From: Promethearchaeota archaeon
Lineage (GTDB): Archaea > Asgardarchaeota > Lokiarchaeia > Sigyniarchaeales > SOKP01
Direction: 5' to 3'
Length of the DNA: 64,000 nt
NCBI GenBank assembly: GCA_048939995.1
Contig: JBHLOY010000001.1
Location: 256,001 to 320,000 of the forward strand
This document shows, piece after piece, positions 11,307-34,615 of the stretch. Numbering within the stretch: position 1 is the first letter of the stretch; each line of letters starts with the position of its first letter. The notes below the pieces were generated by a model. The model ran no database searches. It saw only the letters and a list, made by a program, of their open reading frames with translations, and was not told the DNA's origin. The position numbers and the translations under genes were made by a program.

Positions 11307-12599
11307 TTATTGCTTATATCTAAAAAGTCTTCTTGATTCGCTATCTTCTAGAACATAGTTCGATCCCCCTCCATGTACCATACAATAGGGGTCAAGAAGT
11401 CCGATTTCATTAGCATATTGCCTTGTAAAGCCACGTCCACCCATAGTTCTGAAACAATGTATAGAGGATTCAAACCCTAATTCCGTAGCGCTAACTTTAA
11501 GACCCATGGCATTTACTGCCATTAATTTTGAACTCGCTAATTCGGGATGCTCATCAAGTTGTCGTGCATAATTAAATAAAGCAGAAATGTGTAAGTTTAA
11601 TTCGCGAATTTTTTCCGAAATAGGATATCTTATAACCTGATATTGATGTAATCTTTTTTCGAATTGTACACGTTGTAAGGCATATGCATGAGAATATAAT
11701 AACTTTTTCATTGCGTCCCCTAACGCTTCAGCACTGATAACTAGTCTCTCTTCTGTAAGTTGATGAAAGGCTATATCCAAGCCATGTCCGTTTAAGAGGT
11801 TTTCTTTTGGAATTTCAGTTCCATCAAAGATTAAACGACTTACAAAAGCATCAGTCATTCCATAAGTACTGATTCTTGTGCTTTTAAAATTCTTCAATTC
11901 TTGATGTTCAGTATCAAGTACCACCGCCCCAAGTTCGCCATTATCCAATCTACCATATAAAATGATATAGTCTGCTATCATACCATTGGTGATAAATAAT
12001 TTTTTACCTTTTGCGATTATTTTATCATTTTCTTCATGTAAAGATAATTCCATTCTAAAGATATCTGATCCTGCATTGAATTCTGTCATTGCTGAGGCTC
12101 CAATTTGGCCATCTTTTGCAACAGGAACTAGAAAACTTTCATTTTGCCATTTGTTTGACGCATAATTAACGGGATTGCAATATAATGTACCTCCTGCTAA
12201 TCTTCCCATCTCAACGCTATAATTACCTGCAATATATTTTTCACTATGTTCGCTCCAACGCCCTCCACATAATGCATAAGCAATTAAAGCATTTCTTGTA
12301 ATTCGTCCCACTTCAAATTCTTCAGTATTTAAAATAGTTGAATAATAACCTTTTTCAGCTAGTTTCTTCATAATGCCTATAACAATCTCTTTTTTCTTAT
12401 CTTCTGTAGGTTGTTCTATGTAATAGTTTAATTCCTCTAATTTCCTTAAATCTTTATCAAGTCTATTTTCGAGGAACTCATAAAACTCTGCTAGAAATTC
12501 TTTTTCCTTATCGTTTAGAACTGGATTGTTCAATAAGTCTAGCTCAGGGACATATCTTTGAATTCTTATCTTTTCAAATTCACTGATTCTTGTATCCAT
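11307..12599 (-). CDS. Acyl-CoA dehydrogenase family protein (divergent)
   Basis: AMTEFNAGSD, KGKKLFITNG, R.QF, MGGRGF motifs. Confidence 0.85.
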   Translation of the reverse strand: MDTRISEFEKIRIQRYVPELDLLNNPVLNDKEKEFLAEFYEFLENRLDKDLRKLEELNYYIEQPTEDKKKEIVIGIMKKLAEKGYYSTILNTEEFEVGRITRNALIAYALCGGRWSEHSEKYIAGNYSVEMGRLAGGTLYCNPVNYASNKWQNESFLVPVAKDGQIGASAMTEFNAGSDIFRMELSLHEENDKIIAKGKKLFITNGMIADYIILYGRLDNGELGAVVLDTEHQELKNFKSTRISTYGMTDAFVSRLIFDGTEIPKENLLNGHGLDIAFHQLTEERLVISAEALGDAMKKLLYSHAYALQRVQFEKRLHQYQVIRYPISEKIRELNLHISALFNYARQLDEHPELASSKLMAVNAMGLKVSATELGFESSIHCFRTMGGRGFTRQYANEIGLLDPYCMVHGGGSNYVLEDSESRRLFRYKQ

Positions 12600-12763
12600 A
12601 AAAGATCATAAACATTTTTGTAATTTAAAATTAGAATGTTAATTATTAGAAATGTTTTAATCAAAATAAAACATAACAATAAAATATCAGATCTATTAAA
12701 AATATAACTACAAAAACCAAATGAAAGAAAATTAAAGAAAGAAATAATATAATGTGAAAAATA

Positions 12764-14185
12764 ATGATAAAATTTAGTGATAAACAATTAAAGATACCTA
12801 AATTGATGAGACCAGTATATCTGGCTACAGTAGGAATGTCTAAATTTGATAGAGCTTTTCCAGAGACTCGCACTGAAGAGCTTTGCGTTGATGCATTTAC
12901 TGCTGCTGCTGATTTTGTGAATATGACCCCTTCTGAATTAAAAAGTTATATTCATACATGTTATTATGGTCATTTTGCGGATCATTTTGGTGATCAACTC
13001 CTTGGAGAGGCTGTTATTCATGATAGATTAGGTTTAGATCCATTGGGAAATATTGGTGTAAAAACAGGTGGCGCAACTGGAGGATCAGCCATGTGGGAAG
13101 CTGTTAAGACAGTAGCCTCAGGGTATAGTGATTGTGCTCTAGCATTGGGGTGGGAGAGGATGGATGAAGTTCCTACGGATGAGGGAAATCATTTAATTTC
13201 ATGTGCTGCAGACAAGGATTGGGAAACTCCATTAGGTCATATTTATACTGGCTATTATGCTGTAATGGCTCAGAGGTATTGGAAAATATTTGGCAAAGAA
13301 GAACCTTCTTTTAGAGATACAATGGCAGAAATTGCAGTAAAAAATCGTGGATATGCTAGAATGAATCCTCATGCTCAAGGTCCTATGAAGATCACAATAG
13401 AAGATGTTAAAAATTCGCCCATAGTAGCTTATCCTCTAAGAGCTTTAGATTGCTGTTTAATGAGTGTAGGATCTGCATGTGGAATCGTTTGTGATGAGAA
13501 GACAGCTTATGAGATTACAGACAAACCGCTCAGAATTTATATTGCTGCCGGAAGTCACACACTAAGAGTGGCTGATCGAAGAAATATGAATATCCCATTA
13601 TTACCTAATGAAGAACCAGGTCAATATGACAATTTGGGTAAGCAATTTCCAGGAGGAGATCGATATCCTGGTTTCACGGGTTTTTTGGCTGCTCGTATGG
13701 CAGCCTATTATGCTTATAGAATGGCTGGTGTGATGGATCCAACAGATGATTTAGATATTGTTGAATTGCATGATGCATTTACAATCAGTGATATTCAAAC
13801 CTATGAAGATATAGGAATACGACCATATGGTCATGGGCGCGAATATATTGAATCTGGTGATGCTTATGTTATTAATCCAAAAACCAATAAGCCTGGAAAA
13901 TTACCTAGCAATCCATGTGGGGGCCTAATAGGTTGCATGCACGCTGTAGGAGCTACTGGATTAATGCAAATAGCTGAAATCGGTTATCATATATGGAATA
14001 GATGGGATGAAATTCATGAACCAAAAGAAAAATGGAAAGCATTTGATCGTGAAAAGCCAGAAGATTGGACGAGTTTACAAGTCAAAGGTGCTAAGCGTGG
14101 ATTAGCTATAAGTCATGCAGGTGTAGGCTCTCATGTAACTTGTACTATTTTAATGGATCCAAATCATTTAATTAAGGAGGATTGA
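12764..14185 (+). CDS. Thiolase-fold protein (SCP-x/archaeal type) lacking the nucleophilic Cys
   Basis: VELHDAF, NPCGGL..MHAVGATG; the CASG site reads TGGATGG. Confidence 0.85.
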   Translation: MIKFSDKQLKIPKLMRPVYLATVGMSKFDRAFPETRTEELCVDAFTAAADFVNMTPSELKSYIHTCYYGHFADHFGDQLLGEAVIHDRLGLDPLGNIGVKTGGATGGSAMWEAVKTVASGYSDCALALGWERMDEVPTDEGNHLISCAADKDWETPLGHIYTGYYAVMAQRYWKIFGKEEPSFRDTMAEIAVKNRGYARMNPHAQGPMKITIEDVKNSPIVAYPLRALDCCLMSVGSACGIVCDEKTAYEITDKPLRIYIAAGSHTLRVADRRNMNIPLLPNEEPGQYDNLGKQFPGGDRYPGFTGFLAARMAAYYAYRMAGVMDPTDDLDIVELHDAFTISDIQTYEDIGIRPYGHGREYIESGDAYVINPKTNKPGKLPSNPCGGLIGCMHAVGATGLMQIAEIGYHIWNRWDEIHEPKEKWKAFDREKPEDWTSLQVKGAKRGLAISHAGVGSHVTCTILMDPNHLIKED

Positions 14186-14189
14186 AAAG

Positions 14190-14792
14190 ATGCCTAAACT
14201 AGAAGATGAAAAGGGATTTGTTAAAATTGTGAAAGGAAAGTATAAACCTCGAGGGAAATTTCATAATATCGAAAAAAATCAACCAATTTATAATGAAGAT
14301 ACAGGAATGTTAGCAGGAGTTACAAATCCAAGAGATATGACCTATATTCATTCATATGGTGGAGAAAGTATCTTTTTTGAATCATTGGGGAAAGGAAAAT
14401 TAATGGCAACCCGTTGTGATAATGATAAATGCGAGTCAAAGGGATCCATCTTTGAACCTTTTAGAATCTACTGTCCTGATTGCTTGAGAAAAGCTACTGT
14501 TGTTGACATTACCCAAAAAGCTCAAGATTCTGCTAAGATTCATTCATTTATTATCACCCATCGTTCAGGAGCTTTTAATACACTTCCTAAACCAATAAAG
14601 TTCATAAACGTTGAGTTTGATGAAGAAGTAGTAACAATTCTTATGAGTGTATTAGTTGTAGGAGAGCCTGAAATTGGAGAAAGAGTCGTACCAATTTTCC
14701 GAACCAAAAGCCCAACTTATACAATTATGGATTTAATGTTTGTTATTAAAGGTACATCTGAGGCAGAGTTACCAGAAGGATTTACTTTCTAG
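14190..14792 (+). CDS. DUF35 Zn-ribbon/OB-fold acyl-CoA-binding protein
   Basis: FFESL..GKLMATRC...C...YCPDC, OB-fold ending IGERVVPIF; 4 nt after the thiolase. Confidence 0.85.
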   Translation: MPKLEDEKGFVKIVKGKYKPRGKFHNIEKNQPIYNEDTGMLAGVTNPRDMTYIHSYGGESIFFESLGKGKLMATRCDNDKCESKGSIFEPFRIYCPDCLRKATVVDITQKAQDSAKIHSFIITHRSGAFNTLPKPIKFINVEFDEEVVTILMSVLVVGEPEIGERVVPIFRTKSPTYTIMDLMFVIKGTSEAELPEGFTF

Positions 14793-14942: not shown

Positions 14943-16013
14943 GTGAGTATAAAATTTGGGATTCAACATGGTGCTAATGTTGGAGAATTAGAGTTAAAAA
15001 CTAAGGATTACATTAAATCAATAAATTATGTTGAAAAAGCGGGATACGACTCTATTTTTATTTGGGATCATTTAAATGCGACTAATACTAAAGAAGTTCC
15101 AAGTTGTAGTGTTTTATTAACTGTCACTTCTTTAGAAACAGAGAAAGTAAGGATAGGATCATGTGTTTGTGATTCATATAGGAGACATCCTTCTCAAATA
15201 GCTTTAGATTCACTAACGCTACAAAAAATATCAAATGATAGGTTTATTTTAGGTCTAGGCGCTGGAGAAGTTATGAATTTAAACAATTTCGGAATAAATT
15301 GGAATAAACCAGCTCTAAGATTGAAAGAATCTGTAGAAGTCATAAAGAAATTATGGAGTACAACTCAATCAGAAAATGCAGTTAATTATTCTGGCAGGTT
15401 TTTTAGTTTAGACAATGCTCGTTTACAATACTCAGTGAATCAACTACCTGAGCTTTGGTTAGCTGCAAATGGACCACGATTGATTGAATTTACGGGAAAA
15501 ATTGCTGATGGATGGATTCCTTCTGCTCATAATGCTAAACTATATAAAAAGAACTTGAAAATTTTAGGAAAGGGAGGGAGATTAGATGAAATTGAGAAAG
15601 CTTGTGAAGTTTTTGTAGTAATTAGTAAGGATAATCCCGAATTAGCACGACAGATGGCTCGATTGGGAGGCGCATCAATAAGTGTGAATCCATATATTCT
15701 TGAAGATTTGAATATAAAAATCCCTGATAACATTCCTCATGGTCGTTATTACAAGGAAACAATAAGAGAATTAGAAAGTGAGGAAAAAGCAAAAGAGATT
15801 TCTGAGTTTGCTAAAGAATACATACCTCAAGATGTTATTGATTCAATGATTATCTCTGGAAGCCCAGAAGAATGCATTGAACAAATTGATGAGTATATCA
15901 ATGCTGGCGTAGAACATTTTTTAATTGAAGTTTGGGGGTTAGGGAAATATTTTCAGGCGTTAGAGTTATTTACTGATACTGTATTTAGTTATTTTAAAGA
16001 ACTTTACGATTGA
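14943..16013 (+). CDS. LLM-class (luciferase-like, probably F420-dependent) oxidoreductase
   Basis: GYDSIFIWDH, RHP..A, RFILGLGAGE, GKIADGW, GSPEEC. Confidence 0.85.
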   Translation: MSIKFGIQHGANVGELELKTKDYIKSINYVEKAGYDSIFIWDHLNATNTKEVPSCSVLLTVTSLETEKVRIGSCVCDSYRRHPSQIALDSLTLQKISNDRFILGLGAGEVMNLNNFGINWNKPALRLKESVEVIKKLWSTTQSENAVNYSGRFFSLDNARLQYSVNQLPELWLAANGPRLIEFTGKIADGWIPSAHNAKLYKKNLKILGKGGRLDEIEKACEVFVVISKDNPELARQMARLGGASISVNPYILEDLNIKIPDNIPHGRYYKETIRELESEEKAKEISEFAKEYIPQDVIDSMIISGSPEECIEQIDEYINAGVEHFLIEVWGLGKYFQALELFTDTVFSYFKELYD

Positions 16014-16087
16014 ATTCGAAGTTAGATTTATTTTAAGGCTTTCAAAATCATTCTTTTTCAATTTTGTAATCTAAATAGCTTAATTCT

Positions 16088-16185: not shown

Positions 16186-17157
16186 ATGTCTAATGTATTG
16201 ACATCATGGCGTGATAAGTGTATAATTACTTGTGCTCTTACGGGCTCAGCTACAATACCATCTCAAACACCTTATTTACCAATAACTCCTGAAGAGATCG
16301 CTGAAGAAGCTAAAAAAGCATGTGATGCAGGTGCAGCTGTTGTTCATGTTCATGTTAGAGACCCTAAAACTGCTATGCCATCTTCGGATTTGGGGATTTG
16401 GAGAGAGACTCTCGAGAAAATTAAATCTAAAACTAATGTGATAGTTTGTTGCACAACTGGAGGAGGTGCTGGAATGACGGCAGAAGAAAGAATTTCTGTA
16501 GTGCCAGAATTTAAACCAGAGATGTGTTCATTTAATTGTGAATCCATGAATTTTTCAATTTTTCCATTATTGGAAAGAATTCAAGAGTGGAAGTATCCTT
16601 GGGAAAAAGCACTTGTAACTATGAGTAAAGGATTAGTTTTTCAGAATAGTTTTGTAGATTTAGAGAAATTTGTTAAAACCATGTATGAAAATAATGTTAA
16701 ACCTGAACTTGAAATTTACAGCACCAGTGGTCTCTGGAATGCGGGGGCTATGGTTAGATTTGGATGGTTAAAACTTCCTCTTCATATGCAATTTGTATTA
16801 GGAGTATTAGGTGGAACAGGAAACACTCCCTGGGAATTGATGCATTTACATACTGAAGCTTTTAGACTTCTTGGAGAGAGAAATTTCACTTGGTCCGTGA
16901 TTGGGCTAGGATATCCGAGAGAGTTTCATTTAGGAGCAATTTCAGCAACAATGGGTGGCCATATAAGAGTTGGTTTAGAAGATAATATCTCTTTAGGATA
17001 TGATGTTGAAAAGAAGGAACGAATATTGGCGAAAAGTAATGCTGAATTAGTTGAAAAAATGGTAAGAATAGTTAATGACTTGGGGCGTGAAGTAGCTACT
17101 CCTGATGAAGCAAGAAAAATGCTCAAACTTAAAGGTCTTGATAAAGTTAACTATTAA
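16186..17157 (+). CDS. Beta-keto acid cleavage enzyme (BKACE/DUF849; 3-keto-5-aminohexanoate cleavage family)
   Basis: IITCALTG, P.TPEEIA, VHVHVRD Zn motif, KPELE, GGHIRVGLEDN, ATPDEAR. Confidence 0.92.
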   Translation: MSNVLTSWRDKCIITCALTGSATIPSQTPYLPITPEEIAEEAKKACDAGAAVVHVHVRDPKTAMPSSDLGIWRETLEKIKSKTNVIVCCTTGGGAGMTAEERISVVPEFKPEMCSFNCESMNFSIFPLLERIQEWKYPWEKALVTMSKGLVFQNSFVDLEKFVKTMYENNVKPELEIYSTSGLWNAGAMVRFGWLKLPLHMQFVLGVLGGTGNTPWELMHLHTEAFRLLGERNFTWSVIGLGYPREFHLGAISATMGGHIRVGLEDNISLGYDVEKKERILAKSNAELVEKMVRIVNDLGREVATPDEARKMLKLKGLDKVNY

Positions 17158-17337: not shown

Positions 17338-18480
17338 ATGGATAAAGTTGCGATAGTAGGAGTTGCTCAAACTAAATATGAAGCAGAGAAGATAGATCAA
17401 ACATATATGGAGCTTGTCTTTGAAGTTGTAAAGAAATTATATAATGATCTAGGAATAATTAATGATGATGTTGGGTCTGTTATAACAAGTTCAAACGATT
17501 TTAATGATGGTAGAACTATTGCTAATATGGGAATTCAAGATGCTGTAGGATCAATTGGAAAATCAGAATCTAGAGTCTCTGGTGATGGTGCTTTTGCGTA
17601 TGTTTATGCTGCAATGAGAATACTATCTAGAGAATATGACACTGTAATGGTTGTTTCTCATTGTAAGTGTTCTGAAGTGAATCAGTATCTTGTAAATAAT
17701 ACTATTTTTGATCCATATTATCAAAGACATTTAGGTTTAGATCAAATCTCTTCTGCTGGCTTAATGGCAAATATGTATATGACAAAATATGGCATAACTA
17801 AAGAACAGGCAGCCAAAGTGGTAGTAAAGAACAGAAAAAATGCTCTAAATAATCCTTATGCTCACTTACAGAAAGAAGTATCCCGTGAGGAAGTCCTCAA
17901 TTCACCAATGATGGCTTATCCCTTAAAAAAATTAGAATTTCCACCTTTTTCAGATGGTGCAGTTGCAATGTTGTTAACTAATGAGAAAATAGCAAGAAAG
18001 TTCACAGATACTCCTGTATGGTTAAAAGGATATGGAAATTGTACTGATGCATATTATCTAGGACATCGTAATATGACAGACTTGATTGGACTTGAATTAG
18101 CTGCAAAAGAAGCATATAAAATGGCAGATATTAAAAATCCTGTGGAAGAATTAGATGTTGCTGAAGTTTATGATGCTTTTTCGGTTCATGAATTGATGAG
18201 TTATGAAGCTTTGGGTTTCTGTAACAAGGGAAAGGGTGGTGAATTTATGGATAGTGGTCAATCTTATATGAATGGAAATATACCAGTAAATCCCTCAGGA
18301 GGTGTGCTTTCAAGTAATCCAACAATGGCAAATGGTCTGATTCGCGTAGCAGAAATTGCTCTCCAATTAATGGGTAAAGCTGATAAGAGACAGATTAATG
18401 GTGCTAAAATAGGTTTAGCAAATGGCATGAATGGAATATGTTCCCAAGGAAATTGCGTTTTAATTTTTGGAGGTGAATAA
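17338..18480 (+). CDS. Thiolase-fold protein, Ltp4-like (no catalytic Cys)
   Basis: SSNDFNDGR, SRVSGDGAFA, EVYDAF, VNPSGG..SSNP.MANGL. Confidence 0.8.
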   Translation: MDKVAIVGVAQTKYEAEKIDQTYMELVFEVVKKLYNDLGIINDDVGSVITSSNDFNDGRTIANMGIQDAVGSIGKSESRVSGDGAFAYVYAAMRILSREYDTVMVVSHCKCSEVNQYLVNNTIFDPYYQRHLGLDQISSAGLMANMYMTKYGITKEQAAKVVVKNRKNALNNPYAHLQKEVSREEVLNSPMMAYPLKKLEFPPFSDGAVAMLLTNEKIARKFTDTPVWLKGYGNCTDAYYLGHRNMTDLIGLELAAKEAYKMADIKNPVEELDVAEVYDAFSVHELMSYEALGFCNKGKGGEFMDSGQSYMNGNIPVNPSGGVLSSNPTMANGLIRVAEIALQLMGKADKRQINGAKIGLANGMNGICSQGNCVLIFGGE

Positions 18481-18484
18481 GAGA

Positions 18485-19651
18485 ATGGCTAAAAATGATG
18501 TGGCTATTGTTGGGATAGGGCAAACAAAATTTAGAAGTAAACGGAGAGATGTAAATATTCCTGAAATGATCTATGAAGCCACAAAAATGGCTTTGGATGA
18601 TGCTCAACTTGAACCTAAAGATATTGACGCCATAATTATTGGCAATATGGACCATTTTGAAGGAGTTAATTTCTCAGAAATGTGGTGTGGAATTGATGCA
18701 GCACCAGGTTATTTAAAGCCAGTTGTTAAAGTTGCAACAGGTGGTACAACTGGAAGTTCATTAGCAATTTGCGGATATTATAATGTTGCTTCAGGAATTT
18801 ATGATAAAGTACTGGTTATTGGGTGGGAAAAATTAAATGAAGGAGGAGCAACAACAGGGATCATTACCGCTTTTGATCCCGTTTGGGAAAGACCATCATT
18901 AGCAGGAGCTTTAGGTCCTTTGGCTCTTATGGCAAGTACCTACGCAGCAAAATACGGAATAACACCAGAACAAGCTGCAAAAGTAACAGTTAAAAATAGA
19001 AGTAATGCAGCAAACAATCCATTTGCTCATCTACAAATGCCTAATATCACTGTAGATTATGTAATGAGCTCTCAATTGATATCTCCTCCTTTAAGACTGC
19101 ATGATTGCTGCCCTCAGAGTGAAGGTGCTTGCGCAATTATTTATGCTAATAAGGAAGAAACGAAGAAGATAAGAGACAACCCCGCGTGGGTTCATTCAGT
19201 TGCAACAGCTCATTATTATACTTATGGAACCGATACATTAATGTACGATTTGCCTTCAGCAACCATAGCTGCAAAAGTGGCTTATAAAAAGGCTGGGATT
19301 AAAGATCCCGTTAAAGATTTAGACGTTGCTGAAATTTATGAACCTACTTCTTGGAGCGAGTTAGCATGGACAGAAGGTCTACTTTTCTGTGAAAAGGGAG
19401 AGGGTGGGAAAATACTAGATGAAGGAATTACTCAAATGAGCGGTGAATTACCTGTTAATCCATCAGGTGGCGTTTTAAGTACTAATCCCATTGGGGCCAC
19501 AGCTTTAGTACGAGTAGCAGAAGCAGCAACCCAAGTAATGGGTAGAGGTGAAAAGAGACAAGTCCCAGAAGTAGAGAAAGCTCTTTCTATGGGATTTGGA
19601 GGAAGTTTATGGACTGAATTATTAATATTAGGTAAAGAACCAATGAGGTGA
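18485..19651 (+). CDS. Thiolase-fold protein, Ltp3-like (no catalytic Cys)
   Basis: DHFEGV, KVATGGTTGSS, EIYEPTSW, VNPSGGVLSTNPIGATA; ATG 18485 follows a GGAGGTGA SD. Confidence 0.8.
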   Translation: MAKNDVAIVGIGQTKFRSKRRDVNIPEMIYEATKMALDDAQLEPKDIDAIIIGNMDHFEGVNFSEMWCGIDAAPGYLKPVVKVATGGTTGSSLAICGYYNVASGIYDKVLVIGWEKLNEGGATTGIITAFDPVWERPSLAGALGPLALMASTYAAKYGITPEQAAKVTVKNRSNAANNPFAHLQMPNITVDYVMSSQLISPPLRLHDCCPQSEGACAIIYANKEETKKIRDNPAWVHSVATAHYYTYGTDTLMYDLPSATIAAKVAYKKAGIKDPVKDLDVAEIYEPTSWSELAWTEGLLFCEKGEGGKILDEGITQMSGELPVNPSGGVLSTNPIGATALVRVAEAATQVMGRGEKRQVPEVEKALSMGFGGSLWTELLILGKEPMR

Positions 19652-19656
19652 ACTTA

Positions 19657-20145: not shown

Positions 20146-20158
20146 CGAGGTGAATCTA

Positions 20159-26093: not shown

Positions 26094-26094
26094 A

Positions 26095-26910
26095 CTACCT
26101 ACCAATAAAATTGGGAGCTCTTTTTTCCTTTAGTGCTTGCATTGATTCATTAAAGTCTTTCGACGTGAAGCTTTTTCTTAGAGCTTTATTCTCTATATCC
26201 AGGGTCTTTGAAAGGATTTCTCTGAAATAACTATGCATTGTTTTTTTCATTAATTTTATCGATAAGTAGGGCCCTTTAGGAGGAATTAATCGTAAAGCTT
26301 GTTCTCTAGCGTAAGGAATCAATTTATCAGTTGGTAATACTTTATTTATTAAACCTAGCTCGTATGCTTGCTGAGCTGTGATTTTATCTCCGAAATATAC
26401 GATTTCTTTAGCTTTTTGAAAACCTAAATAAAATGGTAGTATAAAAGAGTTGGCAAATTCTGGAATTATCCCTCTTTTAACAAAAAAGAATCCGAGCCAT
26501 GCATCCTCAGACATATAAATTAGATCAGCACCAGCAAGTGGCATAGTAATGCCCCCTCCAATTGCCATTCCATTAATGGCAACAATAACGGGCTTATTGA
26601 AGTCCCAAAGTTTCATACATAATGTTTTCTGTGCAATATCCATAATATTAATTTCTGGATATTTCTTCATTTCTTCAAACATTTCAAGCTTAAAAAAACC
26701 ACCAGAAGTAAAAGCTTTCCCTTTAGGATCTCCAGTAATTATCAAGACTTTACTACTTTTATCTCCTTCCATATCTTCTAAAATAGTGTATAGTTCCAGA
26801 AATGTAATGTAAGTAACAGCATTTCTTCTTTCAGGTTTAGAAATGGTTGCAGTACATATTCCATTATCTTCTTTTTTATAAATTATGTCTTGAAAGTCAT
26901 CAATATTCAT
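26095..26910 (-). CDS. Enoyl-CoA hydratase/isomerase (crotonase)
   Basis: KAFTSGG, KPVIVAINGMAIGGGIT, F.KRGIIPE. Confidence 0.9.
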   Translation of the reverse strand: MNIDDFQDIIYKKEDNGICTATISKPERRNAVTYITFLELYTILEDMEGDKSSKVLIITGDPKGKAFTSGGFFKLEMFEEMKKYPEINIMDIAQKTLCMKLWDFNKPVIVAINGMAIGGGITMPLAGADLIYMSEDAWLGFFFVKRGIIPEFANSFILPFYLGFQKAKEIVYFGDKITAQQAYELGLINKVLPTDKLIPYAREQALRLIPPKGPYLSIKLMKKTMHSYFREILSKTLDIENKALRKSFTSKDFNESMQALKEKRAPNFIGR

Positions 26911-26975: not shown

Positions 26976-28673
26976 TTAATCTTCACGTAATGCTCTTTTC
27001 AAAACTTTTCCTACCGTAGTTAAAGGCAACTCTTCTCTGAATTCCCAAATCTTTGGGACTTCATACTTTGAAAGATTTTCTTCTGCGTACTTTTGAATAC
27101 TTGCTTTTACTTCATCAGTTGCAGTCACACCTTCCTTTAACTGAATAACTGCTTTTACTATTTCAGCTCCGGGTCGATCGGGGTTCGGTACTCCAATTAT
27201 TGCTAGGATAGCTATGTCGGGATGTTTAGTCATAACTTCTTCTACGTGAACGCTGTAGACCTTAAAACCACTAACGATTAGCATATCTTTTGTACGATCT
27301 ACAATCTTCAAATATCCCTCTTCATCGAAGACACCTACATCTCCAGTATGAACGTAGCCCTCGTTATCAAAGGTTTTCGCTGTCGCTTCAGGTTTATTAT
27401 GATATCTTTTTGTGACTTGAGGTCCTTTGATTAGGATTTCACCAGGAGTCCCAATACCTACTTTTTCACCTGTTTCTACATCAACAAGCTTAATATCCGT
27501 ATCAGGTAGAGGTAACCCCACTGTTCCTATTTTCTTTTCTCCAAACATTGGATTTACAGTAGCCAGTACTGCTGTTTCAGTCATTCCATAGACCTCAACA
27601 AATTTGTTCTGAGAATGAAACTGCTTTTCAAATTGTCTTATCGCTTCAGGAGGAAATGGAGCGGCTCCACTAACATACAGAGTGATATTGTCTAATACTT
27701 CAGGTGGAATATCTTTTGACTTTGGATTTTGTTGAACCATTAAGAAGAGAGTTGGTACATTGCCAAAACTAGAAGGCTTCTTATCAATGAGTTCTTTAAT
27801 AATGTGATCAGTATCTCTCGGATTTGCGATTATAATCTGAGTTCCGCCAATATAATTCAAGAACAATCCAATAAAGTATCCTGCAATGTGGAAATAAGGA
27901 AATGCAGATAACGTAATCTCTTTTCCTTTTTCTCTATTAAGCCAAGTATCGAATTGATGCATGTTTGAAACCAAGTTAGCATGTACTATTTCAGTTCCTT
28001 TAGGAAGACCTGTCGTTCCTCCTGTATATTGAATTAATGCTAAATCAGTCTTGGGATCAATGTTCACTGGTTTTAAATCTATTTCAATATTAATAGCATC
28101 TAAAAATGGAACTACTGTTTTCCCTGGCCATGGTGTCATCTTTCCTTTAGGGATTTTTTTTATCAATTTTCCCATGAATACTTTAAATCCAGAAAAACCC
28201 ATGAATTCAGAAACATTAGTAGGAACAATTACCTGCAAATTTGGTAACCTGTCTAAAAATTTACTAAAGATTTTTTCATAAATAATGTCCATAGTTACAG
28301 CAACTTTAGCATTACAATCCCCAAGTTGATAAGCCATCTCTTCGGGACTTAAGAGTGGAGAACACCCAGAGACTGTTCCACCTGCAATATAGGTCCCATA
28401 AGCGGCAAATAAAAATTGAGGTGTATTTGGAAGACAAATAGCAACTACATCACCCTTTTGTAGCCCATTTTTTTGTAAAAAAGTCCCAAATTTCTGAGCG
28501 TATTCTAAAATTTCAGAAAAAGTGAAAGAACGATCCATAAAATGAAATCCTATTCTATCAGAATATGTGGTCATAGTTTCAGTTAAAATTGTCCCAAGAT
28601 CCTTATTTGGGTATGTTAAAGTGGATGGAACATGTTTATCATACGATTTCAACCAAAATTTTTCACTACTCAT
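26976..28673 (-). CDS. Long-chain fatty acid-CoA ligase
   Basis: YTGGTTGLPKG, YGMTET, TGDVG, VDRTKDM, LP.T.VGK. Confidence 0.92.
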   Translation of the reverse strand: MSSEKFWLKSYDKHVPSTLTYPNKDLGTILTETMTTYSDRIGFHFMDRSFTFSEILEYAQKFGTFLQKNGLQKGDVVAICLPNTPQFLFAAYGTYIAGGTVSGCSPLLSPEEMAYQLGDCNAKVAVTMDIIYEKIFSKFLDRLPNLQVIVPTNVSEFMGFSGFKVFMGKLIKKIPKGKMTPWPGKTVVPFLDAINIEIDLKPVNIDPKTDLALIQYTGGTTGLPKGTEIVHANLVSNMHQFDTWLNREKGKEITLSAFPYFHIAGYFIGLFLNYIGGTQIIIANPRDTDHIIKELIDKKPSSFGNVPTLFLMVQQNPKSKDIPPEVLDNITLYVSGAAPFPPEAIRQFEKQFHSQNKFVEVYGMTETAVLATVNPMFGEKKIGTVGLPLPDTDIKLVDVETGEKVGIGTPGEILIKGPQVTKRYHNKPEATAKTFDNEGYVHTGDVGVFDEEGYLKIVDRTKDMLIVSGFKVYSVHVEEVMTKHPDIAILAIIGVPNPDRPGAEIVKAVIQLKEGVTATDEVKASIQKYAEENLSKYEVPKIWEFREELPLTTVGKVLKRALRED

Positions 28674-28821: not shown

Positions 28822-29577
28822 TTATAAGCCCGGAATCCTTGTTCTTTTGTATAGAATATCTAAGGCTTTGGAAACGAGAGTGATCACTACTAAGAAAAGT
28901 AGAGCTACAATAATATATGTAAATATTACTGCAAACGTTGCGAAAGCTACAGCATATGCTTGAGCAAAGAGGTCTGATACAGCAATGAAATATACAACGA
29001 CTGTATATTTTGGGAGATATGCTGCTTCATTAGACCATGCAGGAATAACACGACGTAAAGCTTGTGGTAAAATTACTCGCCTTATGCCAGCTCCTCGAGA
29101 CATACCTAAAGATTGAGCAGTAATTAGTTGTTCGCTACTAATAGAAATAATAGCGCCTCGGAAATATTCAGCTTGATATGCAGCACTGTTAAGACCTAAA
29201 GTAAGAATGGCTACCAAGGTTTGTGGGTTTAACCATATGACAGAAATGTTCTTGCCTAAGAATGTGGATACAGTTTTTAATTCCCAATTTCCTAAGGGGA
29301 GATTTAAACTAAGGGGGAGAAAATAGAAGAAGAATATTTGTGCAAGTAACGGCGTGCCACGTATAATTTCAATATATCCGGATGCAATCCAAGAAAGAGG
29401 GGTAGTATATGGAGGGTGAAAACTTTTACCATATACCCGAAGAATAGCAAGTAAAAGTCCAAGGAAAAATCCTATTATAAGTGCCCATAAATATAACCAC
29501 ATGGTCACTATGAAACCCGAGAGAATGAAATTCCAACGGTTTAATACTTGTTCTATAGGATTTGCTTGAATAATCAT
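28822..29577 (-). CDS. Polar amino acid ABC transporter permease
   Basis: RGTPLL, AY.AE.FRG, ILPQALR. Confidence 0.92.
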   Translation of the reverse strand: MIIQANPIEQVLNRWNFILSGFIVTMWLYLWALIIGFFLGLLLAILRVYGKSFHPPYTTPLSWIASGYIEIIRGTPLLAQIFFFYFLPLSLNLPLGNWELKTVSTFLGKNISVIWLNPQTLVAILTLGLNSAAYQAEYFRGAIISISSEQLITAQSLGMSRGAGIRRVILPQALRRVIPAWSNEAAYLPKYTVVVYFIAVSDLFAQAYAVAFATFAVIFTYIIVALLFLVVITLVSKALDILYKRTRIPGL

Positions 29578-30362
29578 TATCTTTCCTCCTCTGATATTTT
29601 TAAAAGTTCTTCATGGCTTCCATATAAAATTTGGAGTTGCTTGAGGAAAGTTTTAACCCTTTCAGACTTTGGGTTTGTAAAAAAGTGCTGTGGGGTACCG
29701 CGTTCTAAAATGATACCTTCTCCAAGAAAAATCATTTCCGATGCAACAGCTCTAGCAAATCCCATTTCATGAGTTACAACCACCATCGTAGTTCCTGATT
29801 TAGCAATATCTAACATTACTTGAAGTACTTCACCGATCAATTCTGGATCTAATGCAGAAGTAGGCTCATCAAATAGTATTACATCAGGCTCCATGGCTAA
29901 AGCACGTGCTATGCCTATGCGTTGTTGTTGACCTCCTGATAGCTGCGCGGGATAATGATCCGCCCATTTTGCCATTTTTACACTTTCTAATGCTTTAAGT
30001 GCTTTTTCTCTAGCTTCTTCCTTTGGTAAAAATTTTACGCGACGAAGTCCAATAGTGACATTGTTTATTGCTGTGAGGTGGGCAAACAAATTAAAATGTT
30101 GGAATACCATCCCAATTCTTGCTCGAATTTGATTAATACTAACTCCTTTTTCTCTTATGTTCTGTCCGCGGAGATATACCTCACCCTTATCCGGAGGATT
30201 TAGCATATTGATACAACGCAGTAATGTGCTTTTCCCAGAACCACTCGGTCCGAATATAACTTTAACATCTCCTTCAGCTACTTCAAAAGAAACTCCTTTC
30301 AGAACTTGCAAATTGTCATAGGATTTCCATATATCAACTAATTTTAGTACAGATTCACTTAT
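29577..30362 (-). CDS. Polar amino acid ABC transporter ATP-binding protein (GlnQ-like)
   Basis: [36 protein letters not shown]; the N-terminal [12 protein letters not shown] lies upstream of the TTG at 30311, so the start is extended to ATA 30362. Confidence 0.9.
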
Positions 30363-30364
30363 TT

Positions 30365-31423
30365 TTAACCACCTCCCATTCCTAACTTTTTAAGTTTTTT
30401 AGTTTGGCGTTCGCCAAATAATTTAGTTATTGGAAAAGTAAAAAGAAAGTAAGTAATTGCTACAACCCCCATAGATAGCGCCCATAACTCGCGAAAACTC
30501 ACAGATACATAATAAGCTGCTCTTGTCATCTCAATAATTCCCACCTCAAATGCAAACGAAGAATCTTTAATAACGACAGCATATTCATTGGACCAGCTAG
30601 GTAAAGCGAGTCTGAGTGCTTGAGGCATTAATATGTGCCGGAAAGCTTGGAATCGGGTCATTCCCACCGAATATGCAGCCTCTATTTGCCCTGGATTCAC
30701 TGATAATATAGCCCCACGAAAGATTTGAGATTGATAAGCACCACTGCGAACAGCTAATGCTAAAACTACACTATTAAGTGGAGAAATATTTGGAATTCCA
30801 AAATAGAATAGGTAAATCAGAACTAGAAGTGGAATTCCTCTAAACAGCTTCTCATAACCGATTCCTACTATACGTAATTCTACACCTCCATAAACACGCA
30901 TAATTGCTAATGAAATGCCAAGAAGAAATCCGAATATTAGACCTAAAACAGTTAGGATTAGTGTTTGAGGTAAACCATTTATAACTATAAATAAAAAAAT
31001 GTAAGGAGGGGTTGCAATAAAGGAAAAAACAAACCCTAGTATAAGTGTAATAAAAAAAAGAATTAATTGAATGACTATAACAAAAACAATTGATTCTCTA
31101 AATTCCTTTTTATAAATCAACATAATGACAAAAATGCCAATTAAAATGTTAATACTAGTACTAATTATTTCTGGAATAATATTCTCGTAGAATAGTGGGA
31201 AAAGTGCATAAAGAGTTGGAATATCTTTTATTAACCATACTATATTGACTATAGCTGATGTTTTGAGGGAGGTATCCCATACATTTGAATAGGGCTTATG
31301 CTTTTTCCTAGCATACCATCTCATTAATAAAATTCCAATCAAAAAGAGAATACACGGAATGATAATGCTTTTAAGATTACTTATTATTAAAGCAATATAT
31401 CCTAAATTTACTTGAAATAACAT
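30365..31423 (-). CDS. Polar amino acid ABC permease with extra N-terminal membrane domain
   Basis: C-terminal FRGIPLL, AY.SQIFRG, GQIEAA, MPQALR; about 140 aa hydrophobic extension. Confidence 0.88.
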
Positions 31424-31504
31424 CTTAGAGTTTTTAATTTTATGTATATTTGATGAATATTAACTAAATAAATAAAAAAAAATTAATAAAGTTTGGAATT
31501 ACAA

Positions 31505-32302
31505 TTAGGCTGTAAAATTGAACCATTTCTGGAGACTATCATACATCCTTCCATCTAAAAAACTATCAAGTATAACGTTATTGATCTCATACATAAGTTC
31601 TGGCTCTCCATATCTGGTCCAAAGTGCAAACTCCTCTGTCCCTGTCCGAAGAATAACCTTGAGATCATACGTTTGTGACCAAGAAAGATAAACAGGTTCG
31701 TCTACATATACCGCTTCGATTGCTCCTCCAATTAAAGCTAACATCATTGCATCAACTGCAATATATTCTGTATATGTAGTCACTCCAGCAGCTATTATAT
31801 CTGCTAAAAGTGTTGAACCAGATTGAACACCTACGTTAGTTCCCTCAAGATCAGATAAATTTCCTATTACCAATACTGAATCATTCTTTACGACAACCGC
31901 TTGACCTACAGTAATGTATGTGATTGATGCCGCAAGATAGGTGGATCGATTTTCGGTGTATGTCATAGCCGCTGCAATCATATCAATTTGACCAGCAGCA
32001 CAAGAAGCAATTAATCCACCAAAAGATCGATCACTCCATTGAATAGTCACACCAATTTCATCAGCAATCCAGTTACATACATCTACATCAAAACCCTCAA
32101 TCTGGCTTGTAGAAATGTTTACAAACTCGAATGGGGGATAATCAGTACTGGTTCCAATTATCATATAACCTCGGGATTTAATTGTATCAAGTAATGAAGT
32201 GCGTGGGGCACCACCAATAAGGGGTGAGGGAATAAACCAACCGCCAAGTAGTCCTCCAACTAAACAAATGGCCATTCCTAGCACTGCTAATTCTCTTTTC
32301 AT
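31505..32302 (-). CDS. Polar amino acid ABC substrate-binding protein (family 3)
   Basis: N-terminal membrane anchor; DYPPFE, GFDVD, AMT.TENR, GVQSGS. Confidence 0.92.
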   Translation of the reverse strand: MKRELAVLGMAICLVGGLLGGWFIPSPLIGGAPRTSLLDTIKSRGYMIIGTSTDYPPFEFVNISTSQIEGFDVDVCNWIADEIGVTIQWSDRSFGGLIASCAAGQIDMIAAAMTYTENRSTYLAASITYITVGQAVVVKNDSVLVIGNLSDLEGTNVGVQSGSTLLADIIAAGVTTYTEYIAVDAMMLALIGGAIEAVYVDEPVYLSWSQTYDLKVILRTGTEEFALWTRYGEPELMYEINNVILDSFLDGRMYDSLQKWFNFTA

Positions 32303-32481: not shown

Positions 32482-32853
32482 TTATTTACTTTTTAATACA
32501 ATTGCTATTGCTCTTGTTAGACGAATCACTTCCATAACCTTACCTTTTTCAACAGTAATTTGTTCTCGGGAAATAGCATGAGTAAAATCTCCTTTTCCTT
32601 CACAAATTCTCGCTATTGCCGCAGAATCTCCAGACATTATGACTTCTGCATCGGGTTTAATACCTTTAGATAATTTGATTTTCCGATTTATGATCTCTAA
32701 AAAGAAAGGATCTTCATTATCAAGATTGAATTGAAATGACATTTCCCAGCTAATATCTTTTCCTGCAATATTAGTAACAAAAACATCTTGTGCTTTTGGA
32801 TTTTTATTCAAATTATCAATTATCTTATTTAAATAATCTATTGCTCTTTCCAT
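32482..32853 (-). CDS. Stand-alone SCP2-like domain protein
   Basis: FQF.L, DAEVIM.......I..GK.D...A.....I.V..G pattern of SCP2. Confidence 0.75.
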   Translation of the reverse strand: MERAIDYLNKIIDNLNKNPKAQDVFVTNIAGKDISWEMSFQFNLDNEDPFFLEIINRKIKLSKGIKPDAEVIMSGDSAAIARICEGKGDFTHAISREQITVEKGKVMEVIRLTRAIAIVLKSK

Positions 32854-32855
32854 AA

Positions 32856-33350
32856 TTAATCTCCTCCTTCATATTCCGGTTTTGATGTCCATTTATCATA
32901 TTCATCTTCAGGTACAAAGAAAAAATCTGTCATTTTTCCTTCTCTTTCTTTACTAAAAACCGCTCTGACTCTTTTCCCCTTTCTTATTTTTGATGGAACT
33001 AGATTTTCAGAAAATATGCCTTGAAGTAGAGCTGTTTCTGCTCCATCTAGCTTTATAAATCCTATACCATATGGTATTGCTTTTATAAACGCTGAAGTAG
33101 TATACCATACTATCGTGCTGACTTCTATGGTTCCAGTTTGTTTTAGTTCCACCCAATCTGCGGGAGAATAGCAATCTGAACAATTGATCCTCGGAGGCAT
33201 CCATGTCTTACCACAATTATTACATTTTGTGCCTAATAATTTCTTGTTATTCATTAGTTCAATAAAGAATTTGGATTGTCCTCCCATTGTATATTTATAA
33301 TCAATTTTTATTTTATCTCTGATTTGATGATCTTGAAATTCTTTACTCAT
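32856..33350 (-). CDS. DUF35 Zn-ribbon/OB-fold protein
   Basis: GTKCNNCG..MPPRINCSDC, LDGAET, GKRVRAVF. Confidence 0.9.
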   Translation of the reverse strand: MSKEFQDHQIRDKIKIDYKYTMGGQSKFFIELMNNKKLLGTKCNNCGKTWMPPRINCSDCYSPADWVELKQTGTIEVSTIVWYTTSAFIKAIPYGIGFIKLDGAETALLQGIFSENLVPSKIRKGKRVRAVFSKEREGKMTDFFFVPEDEYDKWTSKPEYEGGD

Positions 33351-34615
33351 TTCTTCAACCCCTCCTCATTTGCCATTACAATTACTGCGGCATATGCCGC
33401 TCCAGGACCCCCTATTGAATGGGCAATTGATCTGCCTTTTTCAATTGCCACTTGATGTTTACCAGCTTCTCCTCTTAATTGCAAAGCAGCTTCCCCAGTA
33501 CTCATAATACCAGTGGCACCAACCGCATGTCCACATCCAATTAAACCACCAGAAGGGCAACATGGGAGTTCTCCCTCTAACCAGGGACCTTCGCCTGACT
33601 TTTCAAAGGTTTTCTCAATCCAAGGGCCACCCTCTCCAAATGGAACAAATCCAAGCTCTTCATAGGAAATTACCTCTTGCCCCGAGAAAGCATCATGAAG
33701 TTCAGCGCAATCGATTTGCTTCTTTATGTTTTTATAATCTAAACCCCCCATTTTATATGCAGCCTTTGCAGCATAGATATTTGAGTACAATCTGCCCATA
33801 TCTTCTCGATTGCCAATAAAACAATCAGTATTTGCTGCAGCTACTCCAGTAACCCAAATTGGTTTCTCAACCTTAAGTTCTTTTACTTTTTGTTCATTTG
33901 CCAAAATTAATGCTGCTGAAGCCTCTGAATAAAGACAGCAATCCAATAATTTAAAAGGATAACATATGATTCTTGAATAAAGTACATCTTCCACCGTTAT
34001 TTCCATAGGAGATTGAGCTTTTGGATTTAACATAGCGTTACTATGATTTTTAACACTGACGTATGCCATTTGTTCTTCAGTAGGGTTCCCAAATTCTTCA
34101 TAATGTGCATTTACCATGGAAACATATGAACTTGCTGCCATCATACCCATTGGATATTCATAGGTCATATCAGCTGAATAAGCAATAGCATTTAAAACTT
34201 CAGGAGTAGTAGTACCCGTCTGTTCATCATAACAATCATTACATTTCTCAAGCCCTATACATAAACATAGATCACTCAACCCTGATGCTACTTCTGCAAA
34301 TGCCATTCTCACAGTATATCCTCCAGTTGCTCCACCAGTTGCTACTCTGGTGCCGGGTTTATTATTCAATCCTAAATAACTGTTAGTAAAGATATCTGGC
34401 ATAAATTGACGCTCAAAGAGTTCATTATAAATACCATAGACAGAAGATTGAAGGTCATTGTGAGTTATTTCTGCTCCATTCTTATTTGCATCTTCTAAAG
34501 CCAATTTTGTAGCATCATAAGCAAGCTCAAAGTAAGTTTTATCTAAATATCTTGCTCTAAAAGGAGTTATTCCTATACCTATAATTGCTACTTTTTGCAA
34601 AATTTTTTCACTCAA
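33347..34615 (-). CDS. Thiolase-fold protein lacking the nucleophilic Cys
   Basis: RVATGGATGG at the CASG site, AELHDAF, GCGHAVGATG. Confidence 0.85.
   Translation of the reverse strand: MSEKILQKVAIIGIGITPFRARYLDKTYFELAYDATKLALEDANKNGAEITHNDLQSSVYGIYNELFERQFMPDIFTNSYLGLNNKPGTRVATGGATGGYTVRMAFAEVASGLSDLCLCIGLEKCNDCYDEQTGTTTPEVLNAIAYSADMTYEYPMGMMAASSYVSMVNAHYEEFGNPTEEQMAYVSVKNHSNAMLNPKAQSPMEITVEDVLYSRIICYPFKLLDCCLYSEASAALILANEQKVKELKVEKPIWVTGVAAANTDCFIGNREDMGRLYSNIYAAKAAYKMGGLDYKNIKKQIDCAELHDAFSGQEVISYEELGFVPFGEGGPWIEKTFEKSGEGPWLEGELPCCPSGGLIGCGHAVGATGIMSTGEAALQLRGEAGKHQVAIEKGRSIAHSIGGPGAAYAAVIVMANEEGLKK

Follow-up and report, generated by a model that had tools for sequence, protein, structure and literature searches.

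This analysis concerns a gene cluster of about 23 kb in a Promethearchaeota (Asgard) archaeon that encodes four thiolase-fold proteins, ThlA to ThlD. The cluster occupies positions 11307 to 34615 of a 64,000-nucleotide stretch of contig JBHLOY010000001.1, here called the window, which has a G+C content of about 32% and lies on contig C11 of a 3.75 Mb genome (G000) that is 98% complete. The closest protein and contig matches carry the names Promethearchaeota, Promethearchaeia and 'Hermodarchaeota', which fits a Lokiarchaeia-type Asgard archaeon. All open reading frames (ORFs) of the cluster were scanned with Pfam. The scans returned an acyl-CoA dehydrogenase (ACAD), the four thiolase-fold proteins, two crotonases (ECH1 and ECH2), an acyl-CoA ligase (ACSL), a CrtI-like flavoenzyme, an FNR-type reductase with a [2Fe-2S] domain (FNR-Fd), an iron-containing alcohol dehydrogenase (Fe-ADH), a luciferase-like oxidoreductase (LLM), a beta-keto acid cleavage enzyme (BKACE) and two SCP2 proteins. 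There are four DUF35 genes in all, each of which adjoins or overlaps a Thl gene, so that every thiolase-fold protein has a DUF35 partner. The original prediction, made from the sequence alone, had named these classes and the link of every thiolase-fold protein to DUF35, and both were confirmed; its gene list was right in its classes but had left out a four-gene ABC transporter. The features are as follows.

11307 to 12599, minus strand: divergent ACAD of 430 amino acids (aa) with IVD/LCAD-type base placement, oriented divergently from ThlA (Pfam Acyl-CoA_dh_M/_1).
12764 to 14185, plus strand: ThlA, His-type Cys-less thiolase-fold protein of 473 aa with insertions; TGGATGG, HDAF, MHAVGATG (Pfam, alignments).
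14190 to 14792, plus strand: DUF35A, assigned as a divergent DUF35 and partner of ThlA; extended at the N-terminus and carrying the zinc ribbon C-x5-C...CPDC.
14943 to 16013, plus strand: LLM, luciferase-like (F420/Mer-like) oxidoreductase (Pfam Bac_luciferase, 1.2e-50).
16186 to 17157, plus strand: BKACE (Pfam BKACE, 1.4e-96).
17338 to 18480, plus strand: ThlB, Cys-less and His-less thiolase-fold protein of 380 aa; SGDGA, YDAF, -NP (Pfam, alignments).
18467 to 19651, plus strand: ThlC, Tyr/Asn-type Cys-less thiolase-fold protein of 394 aa; TGGTTG, YEPT, -NP (Pfam, alignments).
19648 to 20145, plus strand: DUF35_1, zinc ribbon and OB fold, CxxC...CxxC, whose start overlaps the ThlC stop by 4 nt (Pfam zf-ChsH2, OB_ChsH2_C).
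20150 to 20608, plus strand: DUF35_2, zinc ribbon and OB fold, CxxC...CxxC (Pfam).
20679 to 21503, plus strand: ECH1, crotonase-family enoyl-CoA hydratase following the ThlB/C-DUF35 cassette (Pfam ECH_1, 7e-46).
21529 to 22740, minus strand: Fe-ADH (Pfam Fe-ADH, ADH_Fe_C).
22798 to 23199, minus strand: SCP2_1, small lipid-binding protein of the sterol-carrier-protein-2 family (Pfam SCP2, 1.9e-8).
23277 to 24473, minus strand: FNR-Fd, FNR-type FAD/NAD(P)H reductase fused to a plant-type [2Fe-2S] ferredoxin domain, overlapping the CrtI-like gene by 7 nt (Pfam FAD_binding_6, NAD_binding_1, Fer2).
24467 to 26020, minus strand: CrtI/CrtISO-family FAD enzyme of 517 aa (Pfam Amino_oxidase, NAD_binding_8).
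26095 to 26910, minus strand: ECH2, second crotonase-family enoyl-CoA hydratase (Pfam ECH_1, 4.5e-49).
26976 to 28673, minus strand: ACSL, long-chain fatty-acid-CoA-ligase-like (Pfam AMP-binding).
28822 to 32302, minus strand: polar-amino-acid-type ABC transporter of four genes, namely permease, ATPase, permease and SBP_bac_3 substrate-binding protein (Pfam).
32482 to 32853, minus strand: SCP2_2, small SCP2-family protein following ThlD-DUF35_3 (Pfam SCP2, E=1.8e-4, 22.2 bits against a cut-off of 21.3).
32856 to 33350, minus strand: DUF35_3, partner of ThlD (4-nt overlap), CxxC...CxxC (Pfam zf-ChsH2, OB_ChsH2_C).
33347 to 34615, minus strand: ThlD, His-type Cys-less thiolase-fold protein of 422 aa; TGGATGG, HDAF, GHAVGATG (Pfam, alignments).

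The ORF of DUF35A (200 aa) gave no significant Pfam match, and OB_ChsH2_C was reached only at E=0.003. We take it to be a real, divergent DUF35 because it has the four ribbon Cys, because BLAST links its cross-phylum orthologues to DUF35_1 and DUF35_3, and because the gene next after ThlA homologues in three other phyla encodes a protein 60-63% identical to it.

Loss of the catalytic Cys was judged by alignment to the solved thiolases 6ESQ, 7YVY and 6HSJ and by a MAFFT alignment with the genome's own paralogues, including a Cys-bearing ACAT. The nucleophile, which lies in the loop 'aaCas' in 6ESQ and 7YVY and in GACASSG in the genome's ACAT, was replaced in all four proteins, by Gly in ThlA, ThlC and ThlD and by a shortened SGDGA loop in ThlB, as the original prediction had claimed. 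The second thiolase Cys (HDCF) was also absent from all four, with HDAF in ThlA and ThlD, YDAF in ThlB and YEPT in ThlC. The substitutions sorted the proteins into two types. ThlA and ThlD are of a His type that keeps the HDAF His and the His at the GHP position (MHA or GHA), and this oxyanion-hole/activating pair was found throughout both families. ThlB and ThlC are of a Tyr/Asn type that lacks the pair and carries YDAF or YEPT at HDCF and an Asn with a one-residue deletion at GHP. It is secure from these alignments that none of the four can be a canonical thiolase, and they probably cut carbon chains by other, aldolase-like chemistry. We read the replacement motifs as conserved active sites and not as decay. 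Recent duplication of one thiolase gene was rejected because the paralogues share only 25-39% identity and each belongs to a separate family that spans phyla. No NCBIfam model named any of ThlA to ThlD above its cut-off (PRK06365 gave 675.6 bits against 695 for ThlA, PRK08313 372 bits against 514 for ThlC). BbsAB, the benzoylsuccinyl-CoA thiolase of the benzylsuccinate pathway, was likewise rejected as an identity (BbsB model 126-134 bits against 750, BbsA 27.7 against 250).

Nine thiolase-fold genes were found genome-wide, and the nucleophile Cys was present in two: an ACAT-type gene on contig C13 (GACASSG/HDCF/GHP) that adjoins a DUF35 gene, and a classical thiolase on contig C7. Cys-bearing thiolases with DUF35 partners do Claisen chemistry; they belong to the same subfamily as ThlA and ThlD, being their best or near-best PDB matches, and share the DUF35 partnership, and annotation and published counts put the cluster genes together with them, but in this genome only the C13 pair, one of five DUF35-linked thiolase-fold units, has the Cys. 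Two further Cys-less loci lie outside the window. At C28:113404-116066 there is a second cassette of DUF35, B-type and C-type genes (motifs FEAY and YSPF); this is the version that other families of the order carry, with 41-43% identity to ThlC. The thiolase-fold gene at C38:30078-31334 encodes Pro in place of the nucleophile (NGPASGG) but retains HDAF and GHP; an adjoining DUF35 gene was not detected.

The Tyr/Asn type was compared with TcLtp2 and CtSal, the two characterised thiolase-fold aldolases, which lack the nucleophilic Cys, require a DUF35 partner and have as catalytic base the Tyr with which their HDCF-equivalent motif begins (YDHF and YDCY, respectively) (PMC12329534). TcLtp2-ChsH2(DUF35), the steroid C3 side-chain retro-aldolase of Thermomonospora curvata (PDB 6OK1), has an SCP2-type thiolase fold without the nucleophile, as in ThlB and ThlC, and Tyr comes first in its YDHF as in YEPT of ThlC and YDAF of ThlB. 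Its DUF35 partner is obligatory and its hydratase is co-encoded, and the cluster likewise holds DUF35 and crotonase genes. TcLtp2 cleaves a 3-hydroxyacyl-CoA, a tertiary alcohol, to a ketone and an acyl-CoA (PMC12329534). CtSal-CtShy(DUF35), the bile-acid C5 side-chain aldolase of Comamonas testosteroni (PDB 9MYR), shares with ThlC the Gly at the nucleophile position, the Tyr base and the DUF35 partner, and has the amide Gln352 at the thiolase GHP His position, where ThlC has Asn340. The aldehyde product of CtSal needs a downstream redox enzyme.

Within the ThlC family (110 members, from Asgard lineages to Deltaproteobacteria) TGGTTG, Tyr291, Glu292 and Asn340 were invariant or at least 97% conserved, with Tyr291 in 110/110. 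Tyr291 corresponds to TcLtp2 residue 294 and Asn340 to about residue 344, as read from phmmer aligned coordinate ranges and not from a residue-by-residue alignment. About 30% of the family reads YEPC, which places a Cys one position later than Cys304 of CtSal. The corresponding motif of ThlB was variable: orthologues 80% identical to it read YDAF, YDLF, SENF or SESF, and more distant ones FEAY, FGHT, GAYT or DDRF, so that the Tyr is present in ThlB without being conserved. As the motif varies freely, we read ThlB as probably a degenerate, scaffold-like and non-catalytic partner of ThlC, and ThlC as the probable catalytic lyase subunit of a heteromer with ThlB and two DUF35 proteins. The same four-gene cassette (ThlB-ThlC-2xDUF35) was found in bacteria. 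Retro-aldol cleavage is the best reading for this pair. An aldolase-type Tyr was also seen at the HDCF position of PDB 4U4E chain A ('iYDSFtyt'), which is deposited as a 'thiolase'.

Paired thiolase-fold genes also occur in steroid degraders. Ltp3 and Ltp4 are described in a passage of PMC6273163, citing Wilbrink 2012, as 'aldol-lyases' that are genetically required only for branched sterol side chains. In Rhodococcus and Mycobacterium they form a pair of adjacent thiolase-fold genes assigned to C24-branched side chains, and ThlB/ThlC resembles this pair in architecture; the context there is actinobacterial and steroid, whereas the present cluster is archaeal, anaerobic and without steroid genes. 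A Rhodococcus plasmid pair resembled ThlB/ThlC by motifs and neighbours: one member has the ThlC signature (TGGATGG, YAPF, -NP; 41% identity), the other is a degenerate ThlB-like partner, and the pair adjoins a MaoC hydratase pair and a DUF35 gene. It is a candidate, not an established, Ltp3/Ltp4 orthologue.

The His-type motifs were likewise conserved across phyla. ThlA shares 76-79% identity with proteins from Planctomycetes, Cytophagales, Marinimicrobia, Krumholzibacteria, Desulfobacterales and Thermoplasmata, and in an alignment of 121 sequences TGGATG, HDAF and MH[A/S] were conserved or nearly so and 241 of 473 columns were at least 97% invariant. We rate it among the most conserved proteins of uncharacterised chemistry. 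In 109 full-length relatives of ThlD, reaching down to 52% identity (Helarchaeota, Thermoplasmata, Nitrospirota), Gly at the nucleophile and the GHx His were present in 109/109 and HDAF in 108, the remaining sequence being gapped there. Both proteins have His, not Tyr, at the position of the aldolase base. ThlA-DUF35A and ThlD-DUF35_3 appear on these motifs to be a second enzyme type (Gly...HDAF...GH) without a characterised counterpart, and a retro-aldolase function for them is an open guess. The proposal that all four proteins are aldolases therefore survived for ThlC, with its invariant Tyr as in Ltp2 and Sal, but not as stated for ThlB, which looks scaffold-like, or for ThlA and ThlD, which keep both His and have no Tyr.

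An alternative for the His type is that ThlA and ThlD are decarboxylases or other enolate-formers, comparable to ketosynthase decarboxylases with a Cys-to-Gln change, that ThlB/ThlC is largely structural, and that no retro-aldol reaction takes place. The two proteins do keep the thioester-polarising His pair while lacking both Cys, ThlB is degenerate, and the Cys-less TbSLP has weak malonyl-CoA decarboxylase activity (PMC12329534). The genome, however, has no carboxyltransferase that would make carboxylated acyl-CoAs, and strong conservation marks ThlC, which has a Tyr where the aldolases have their base. In Thermoplasmatota a relative of ThlD lies between two acyl-CoA ligases and follows a MaoC hydratase gene with a 4-nt overlap, a translational coupling like that of hydratase-aldolase pairs. 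We consider this alternative very unlikely.

Synteny was compared in six genus-mates, including the closest relative (G019), and in 12 related genomes or contigs altogether. The cluster genes recurred in the same or a rearranged order in 12/12, which argues that the clustering is not due to chance. In all six genus-mates the cluster was syntenic with the same flanks, with a conserved core of ACAD, ThlA-DUF35A, ThlB, ThlC, two DUF35, ECH1, FNR-Fd, CrtI-like, ECH2, ACSL, SCP2_2, DUF35_3 and ThlD. The closest relative lacks ThlA-DUF35A and keeps the rest, and in the other five (5/6) all three thiolase-fold/DUF35 modules stand side by side within the same flanks. The ACAD is 82-92% conserved at its syntenic position in the genus-mates, where SCP2_2 also keeps its place, and ECH1 is 77-91% conserved beside the ThlB/C cassette in the relatives. 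Throughout the genomes and contigs examined ECH2 was always beside CrtI/FNR-Fd, and FNR-Fd always adjoined the CrtI-like gene. On rearranged contigs ThlB-ThlC-2xDUF35 stayed together with a crotonase, SCP2_1, Fe-ADH, the CrtI-like gene, FNR-Fd and ACSL, and Fe-ADH was linked to CrtI/FNR-Fd/SCP2_1 in four such loci (L042, L045, L053 and L054). Functional coupling is well supported within the ThlB/C block, but only moderately so over the full 23 kb. A mobile island was rejected for the cluster as a whole, whose shared flanks in the genus-mates show it to be chromosomal; only ThlA-DUF35A within it shows what looks like a transfer-like distribution.

Clues to the substrate came from the remaining enzymes. 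The ACAD sequence 'lteERLV' matches 'ldyERVV' of IVD, and both have Gly at the position of the MCAD-type Glu (Glu376) in comparison with 4KTO and 4O5M. The ACAD as a whole resembles solved IVDs only distantly (E about 1e-23) and stays below every NCBIfam ACAD cut-off, so the base placement is IVD-like and orthology is not claimed. The helix-G Glu arrangement of IVD and LCAD goes with 3-methyl-branched or bulky substrates. The ligase had its best NCBIfam matches among long-chain-fatty-acid-CoA ligase models, all below cut-off, and together with the SCP2 proteins it suggests hydrophobic substrates. The CrtI-like enzyme stayed below cut-off for crtI_fam (138 bits against 238) and carot_isom (147 against 587); its atlas neighbours are generic phytoene-desaturase/isomerase clusters and its close relatives are confined to Promethearchaeota metagenome-assembled genomes. 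With the NAD(P)H-[2Fe-2S] reductase beside it, we infer that it may reduce or isomerise double bonds of a long unsaturated chain. It is plausible that the substrate is beta-branched; the most plausible class would be acyl-CoAs that are beta-branched, bulky or both and that derive from acids of the leucine or isoprenoid type. Sterol or hopanoid side chains, which the original prediction had included, are unsupported: nothing in the cluster or its relatives points to steroids, there is no KstD, Hsa or MaoC ChsH pair in the cluster, and the CrtI-like enzyme matches KstD over the Rossmann segment only. Lysine fermentation, to which BKACE and the Lys/Arg-type binding protein might point, was also unsupported: BKACE scored 249 against the Kce cut-off of 382, the window holds no aminomutase genes and the transporter is absent from the closest relative.

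Together these data lead us to prefer, tentatively and with somewhat less than even confidence, the reading that this is a genus-conserved chromosomal catabolic cluster, in which activation, desaturation and hydration of the beta-oxidation type are combined with three old thiolase-fold/DUF35 modules that act without canonical-Cys thiolysis. The ligase would activate a hydrophobic carboxylic acid, the IVD/LCAD-type ACAD would desaturate it at C2-C3, and the CrtI-like flavoenzyme, fed by the NAD(P)H-[2Fe-2S] reductase, might handle other double bonds. A crotonase would hydrate the enoyl-CoA and ThlB-ThlC-(DUF35)2 would split the 3-hydroxyacyl-CoA directly to a carbonyl compound and acetyl-CoA, with ThlC as the catalytic subunit, Tyr291 as the base as in Ltp2 and Sal, and ThlB as scaffold. 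The aldehyde or ketone so formed would go to the Fe-ADH, and hydrophobic intermediates would be carried by the SCP2 proteins. ThlA-DUF35A and ThlD-DUF35_3, with their oxyanion-hole His pair, would most likely also form a thioester enolate, in retro-aldol or related lyase chemistry.

A number of observations weigh against this reading, and the first concern the active site of ThlC. It lacks the second catalytic residue of the Ltp2/Sal type: the acid Tyr344 of TcLtp2 is Asn340 in ThlC, the His of YDHF is Pro, and the essential acid Cys304 of CtSal is Pro293, although Glu292 could substitute for the missing residue. TcLtp2 is distant in sequence (phmmer E 2e-25 for ThlC and 1.6e-19 for ThlB), and ThlB and ThlC are nearer to PDB 4YZO and archaeal ACATs (E 1e-46 to 1e-50) than to Ltp2/Sal (E 1e-19 to 1e-28). 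4YZO, a 'putative acyl-CoA acyltransferase' and the best PDB match of both ThlB (E 1.3e-50) and ThlC (2.1e-46), is itself Cys-less at the nucleophile (NTSGSGG) but keeps His in both motifs (HDMA, GHP), so that its active site is like that of ThlA and ThlD and not of ThlC. The known aldolases also differ in organisation. TcLtp2 is a homodimer with a MaoC-DUF35 fusion and the Ltp2/Sal systems use MaoC-type hydratases, whereas the cluster has a predicted ThlB/ThlC heteromer, two free-standing DUF35 proteins and crotonase-type hydratases; CtSal is steroid-specific, and the cluster has no steroid context.

Conserved Cys elsewhere in the proteins weigh on the same side. Cys215 and Cys222 of ThlC are present in 110/110 family members and Cys231 of ThlA in 121/121, and in the ThlD family Cys128 is 95% and Cys125, at the Met position of the thiolase 'EKM' motif, 71% conserved. 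These columns would suit an explanation in which the proteins are thiolases or acyltransferases with a relocated Cys that serve ordinary beta-oxidation with a 3-hydroxyacyl-CoA dehydrogenase (HAD) encoded elsewhere in the genome. The acid/base Cys has indeed been relocated once in the thiolase superfamily, from CxG to HDCF in SCP2-type thiolases (PMC12329534). Pfam found no 3HCDH, SDR or Etf gene in the cluster or the window, but other parts of the genome hold six good PF02737 HAD genes, of which the closest lies some 28 kb upstream of the window, and with the two true thiolases they could complete ordinary beta-oxidation. The earlier statement that no such dehydrogenase is recognisable thus stands for the window, and the argument built on it is weak. 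We nevertheless find the relocation improbable. The invariant 'CC' Cys is common to Cys-bearing SCP2 thiolases (6HSJ, 'lqCCptsdga') and so is not a replacement for the nucleophile; we take it to lie in the pantetheine-binding loop of thiolase structures. A check for a relocated Cys, which had been named alongside the original claim, turned up conserved Cys in three families, with the 'CC' Cys shared in this way. ThlD Cys125 and Cys128 are each replaced by Ala, Ser or Asn in some members, and ThlB and ThlC also lack both oxyanion-hole His. CtSal, with Gly at the nucleophile position, cannot perform thiolysis (PMC12329534).

The last points against the preferred reading concern the unity of the cluster. 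Other phyla have the three modules singly or in settings unrelated to this one. Within the genus LLM, Fe-ADH and SCP2_1 were found only in G000 and G019. BKACE stays at the locus though the gene itself differs: these two genomes have the plus-strand gene with LLM, and the five others a paralogue of 38-41% identity on the opposite strand without LLM. The polar-amino-acid transporter lies in the middle of the cluster, and is absent between ACSL and SCP2_2 in G019 and L042; we regard it as probably an insertion outside the pathway. ThlA orthologues were present in only 7 of the 121 Asgard-phylum genomes sampled, all within the order of the source organism, which for ThlA-DUF35A looks like the pattern of a transferable accessory pair. 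The variation of LLM, Fe-ADH, SCP2_1, BKACE and the transporter, with the separation of the modules, leaves the claim that the locus is one pathway unsupported.

The cluster may instead be a co-location of independent functions, with ThlA-DUF35A and the ACAD for short branched acyl-CoAs that arise in amino-acid fermentation and the ThlB/C-CrtI-ACSL-SCP2 and ThlD-SCP2 blocks for other, lipid-like substrates. ThlA-DUF35A would then, for instance, split leucine-derived 3-hydroxyisovaleryl-CoA to acetone and acetyl-CoA. The occurrence of the modules apart, the loss of ThlA-DUF35A from G019 with the remainder kept, and its high identity across phyla beside a patchy presence in Asgard archaea, as in a self-contained transferable unit, all favour such an arrangement. 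So do the rearranged loci, which hold together only the ThlB/C-ECH-CrtI-FNR-ACSL block, the amino-acid-type transporter inside the cluster, and genes for 2-oxoacid:ferredoxin oxidoreductase near ThlA in Thermoplasmatota. On the other side, the three modules are adjacent with the same flanks in five of six genus-mates, and the ACADs beside ThlA in other phyla are not orthologous to the cluster ACAD (24-26% identity). We judge independent co-location unlikely.

The direction of the pathway was also considered. Asgard thiolase/DUF35 (KT/DUF35) pairs have been interpreted in terms of fatty-acid synthesis (bioRxiv 10.1101/2024.07.05.601840), and the cluster could by analogy serve aldol- or Claisen-type extension in archaeal fatty-acid or alkyl synthesis akin to Sulfolobus KT/DUF35, with CrtI-like/FNR-Fd as enoyl reductase and Fe-ADH giving aldehydes. 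An FNR-[2Fe-2S] protein would normally pass NAD(P)H electrons to a partner, which would fit C=C reduction, and as the genome has no acetyl-CoA carboxylase any synthesis would be malonyl-independent. Claisen condensation, however, needs an acyl-Cys intermediate, which is missing here. The Sulfolobus-type synthase combines a competent ketothiolase with an SDR ketoacyl-CoA reductase and a MaoC dehydratase, whereas cluster and window have neither SDR nor MaoC and the cluster proteins lack the Cys; the acyl-CoA ligase and the ACAD point to catabolism. A synthetic role therefore has little probability in our estimate.

A profile search of the genome for carboxylase (Carboxyl_trans, PF01039), HMGL-like (PF00682) and Hydantoinase_B domains gave no match, and control families were matched in the same search. 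The carboxylase and HMG-CoA-lyase route for beta-methyl-branched acyl-CoAs and an acetone-type ketone carboxylase were thus not found, and a carboxylation-independent way of splitting such acyl-CoAs would fill a real gap. The missing HMGL-like matches also imply that the genome has no enzyme of the isopropylmalate- or citramalate-synthase type. A more specific form of the catabolic reading, which we regard as doubtful, is that the His-type Cys-less enzymes are a new class and that with ThlB/ThlC they would let anaerobes that lack carboxylase and HMG-CoA lyase split 3-hydroxy-3-methylacyl-CoAs, derived from leucine or from isoprenoid- or phytanyl-type acids, to a ketone and acetyl-CoA with neither carboxylation nor thiolysis. 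The branched-lipid retro-aldol route of the original prediction keeps some footing in the IVD-type ACAD base, the DUF35 partners, the adjacent hydratase and the lack of carboxylase and HMG-CoA lyase, and its formulation as a single pathway remains unproven. If the branched-chain reading is true, it would explain how carboxylase-free sediment anaerobes attack beta-methyl-branched acids, which block ordinary beta-oxidation.

These findings bear on how such genes are counted. In public records all of them carry the name "thiolase" or "acetyl-CoA acetyltransferase". Counts of thiolase/DUF35 pairs in Asgard genomes have been taken as a hint of fatty-acid synthesis (bioRxiv 10.1101/2024.07.05.601840), and published work has used 3-ketoacyl-CoA thiolase as a marker of ancestral Asgard metabolism. 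As the Cys was found in only two of nine thiolase-fold genes and one of five DUF35-linked units, counts of this kind need a residue-level check, and unchecked ones are unsafe in arguments on the lipid divide and on eukaryogenesis, in which Asgard archaea figure as relatives of eukaryotes. The cluster also brings out three large cross-phylum families with strictly conserved non-thiolase active sites and without a characterised member.

Further annotation was obtained for the variable genes and the surroundings. LLM was below cut-off for all NCBIfam F420-type models, the nearest model to BKACE was 3,5-dioxohexanoate:acetyl-CoA transferase (351 bits against a cut-off of 430), and the transporter's binding protein was of the Lys/Arg/Orn type, below cut-off. 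Just downstream of the cluster lie two more acyl-CoA ligases (35853-37535 and 40135-41916), an NMO/FabK-like flavoenzyme (38405-39427) and a third crotonase (44708-45493), interspersed with genes for a PEMT-like methyltransferase and a GNAT protein, which extends the acyl-CoA neighbourhood beyond the 23 kb. At 42488-44599 lies the gene for an Eco57I/MmeI-type N6-adenine DNA methylase of 703 aa, which is a candidate for a type IIG/IIL restriction-modification enzyme. About 12 kb downstream of the cluster, at 46587-48566, are genes for an epsilon-type and the beta (CdhC) subunit of CO dehydrogenase/acetyl-CoA synthase (Wood-Ljungdahl), and at 49878-50366 there is a gene for a small SET-domain protein with a eukaryote-like histone-methyltransferase fold.

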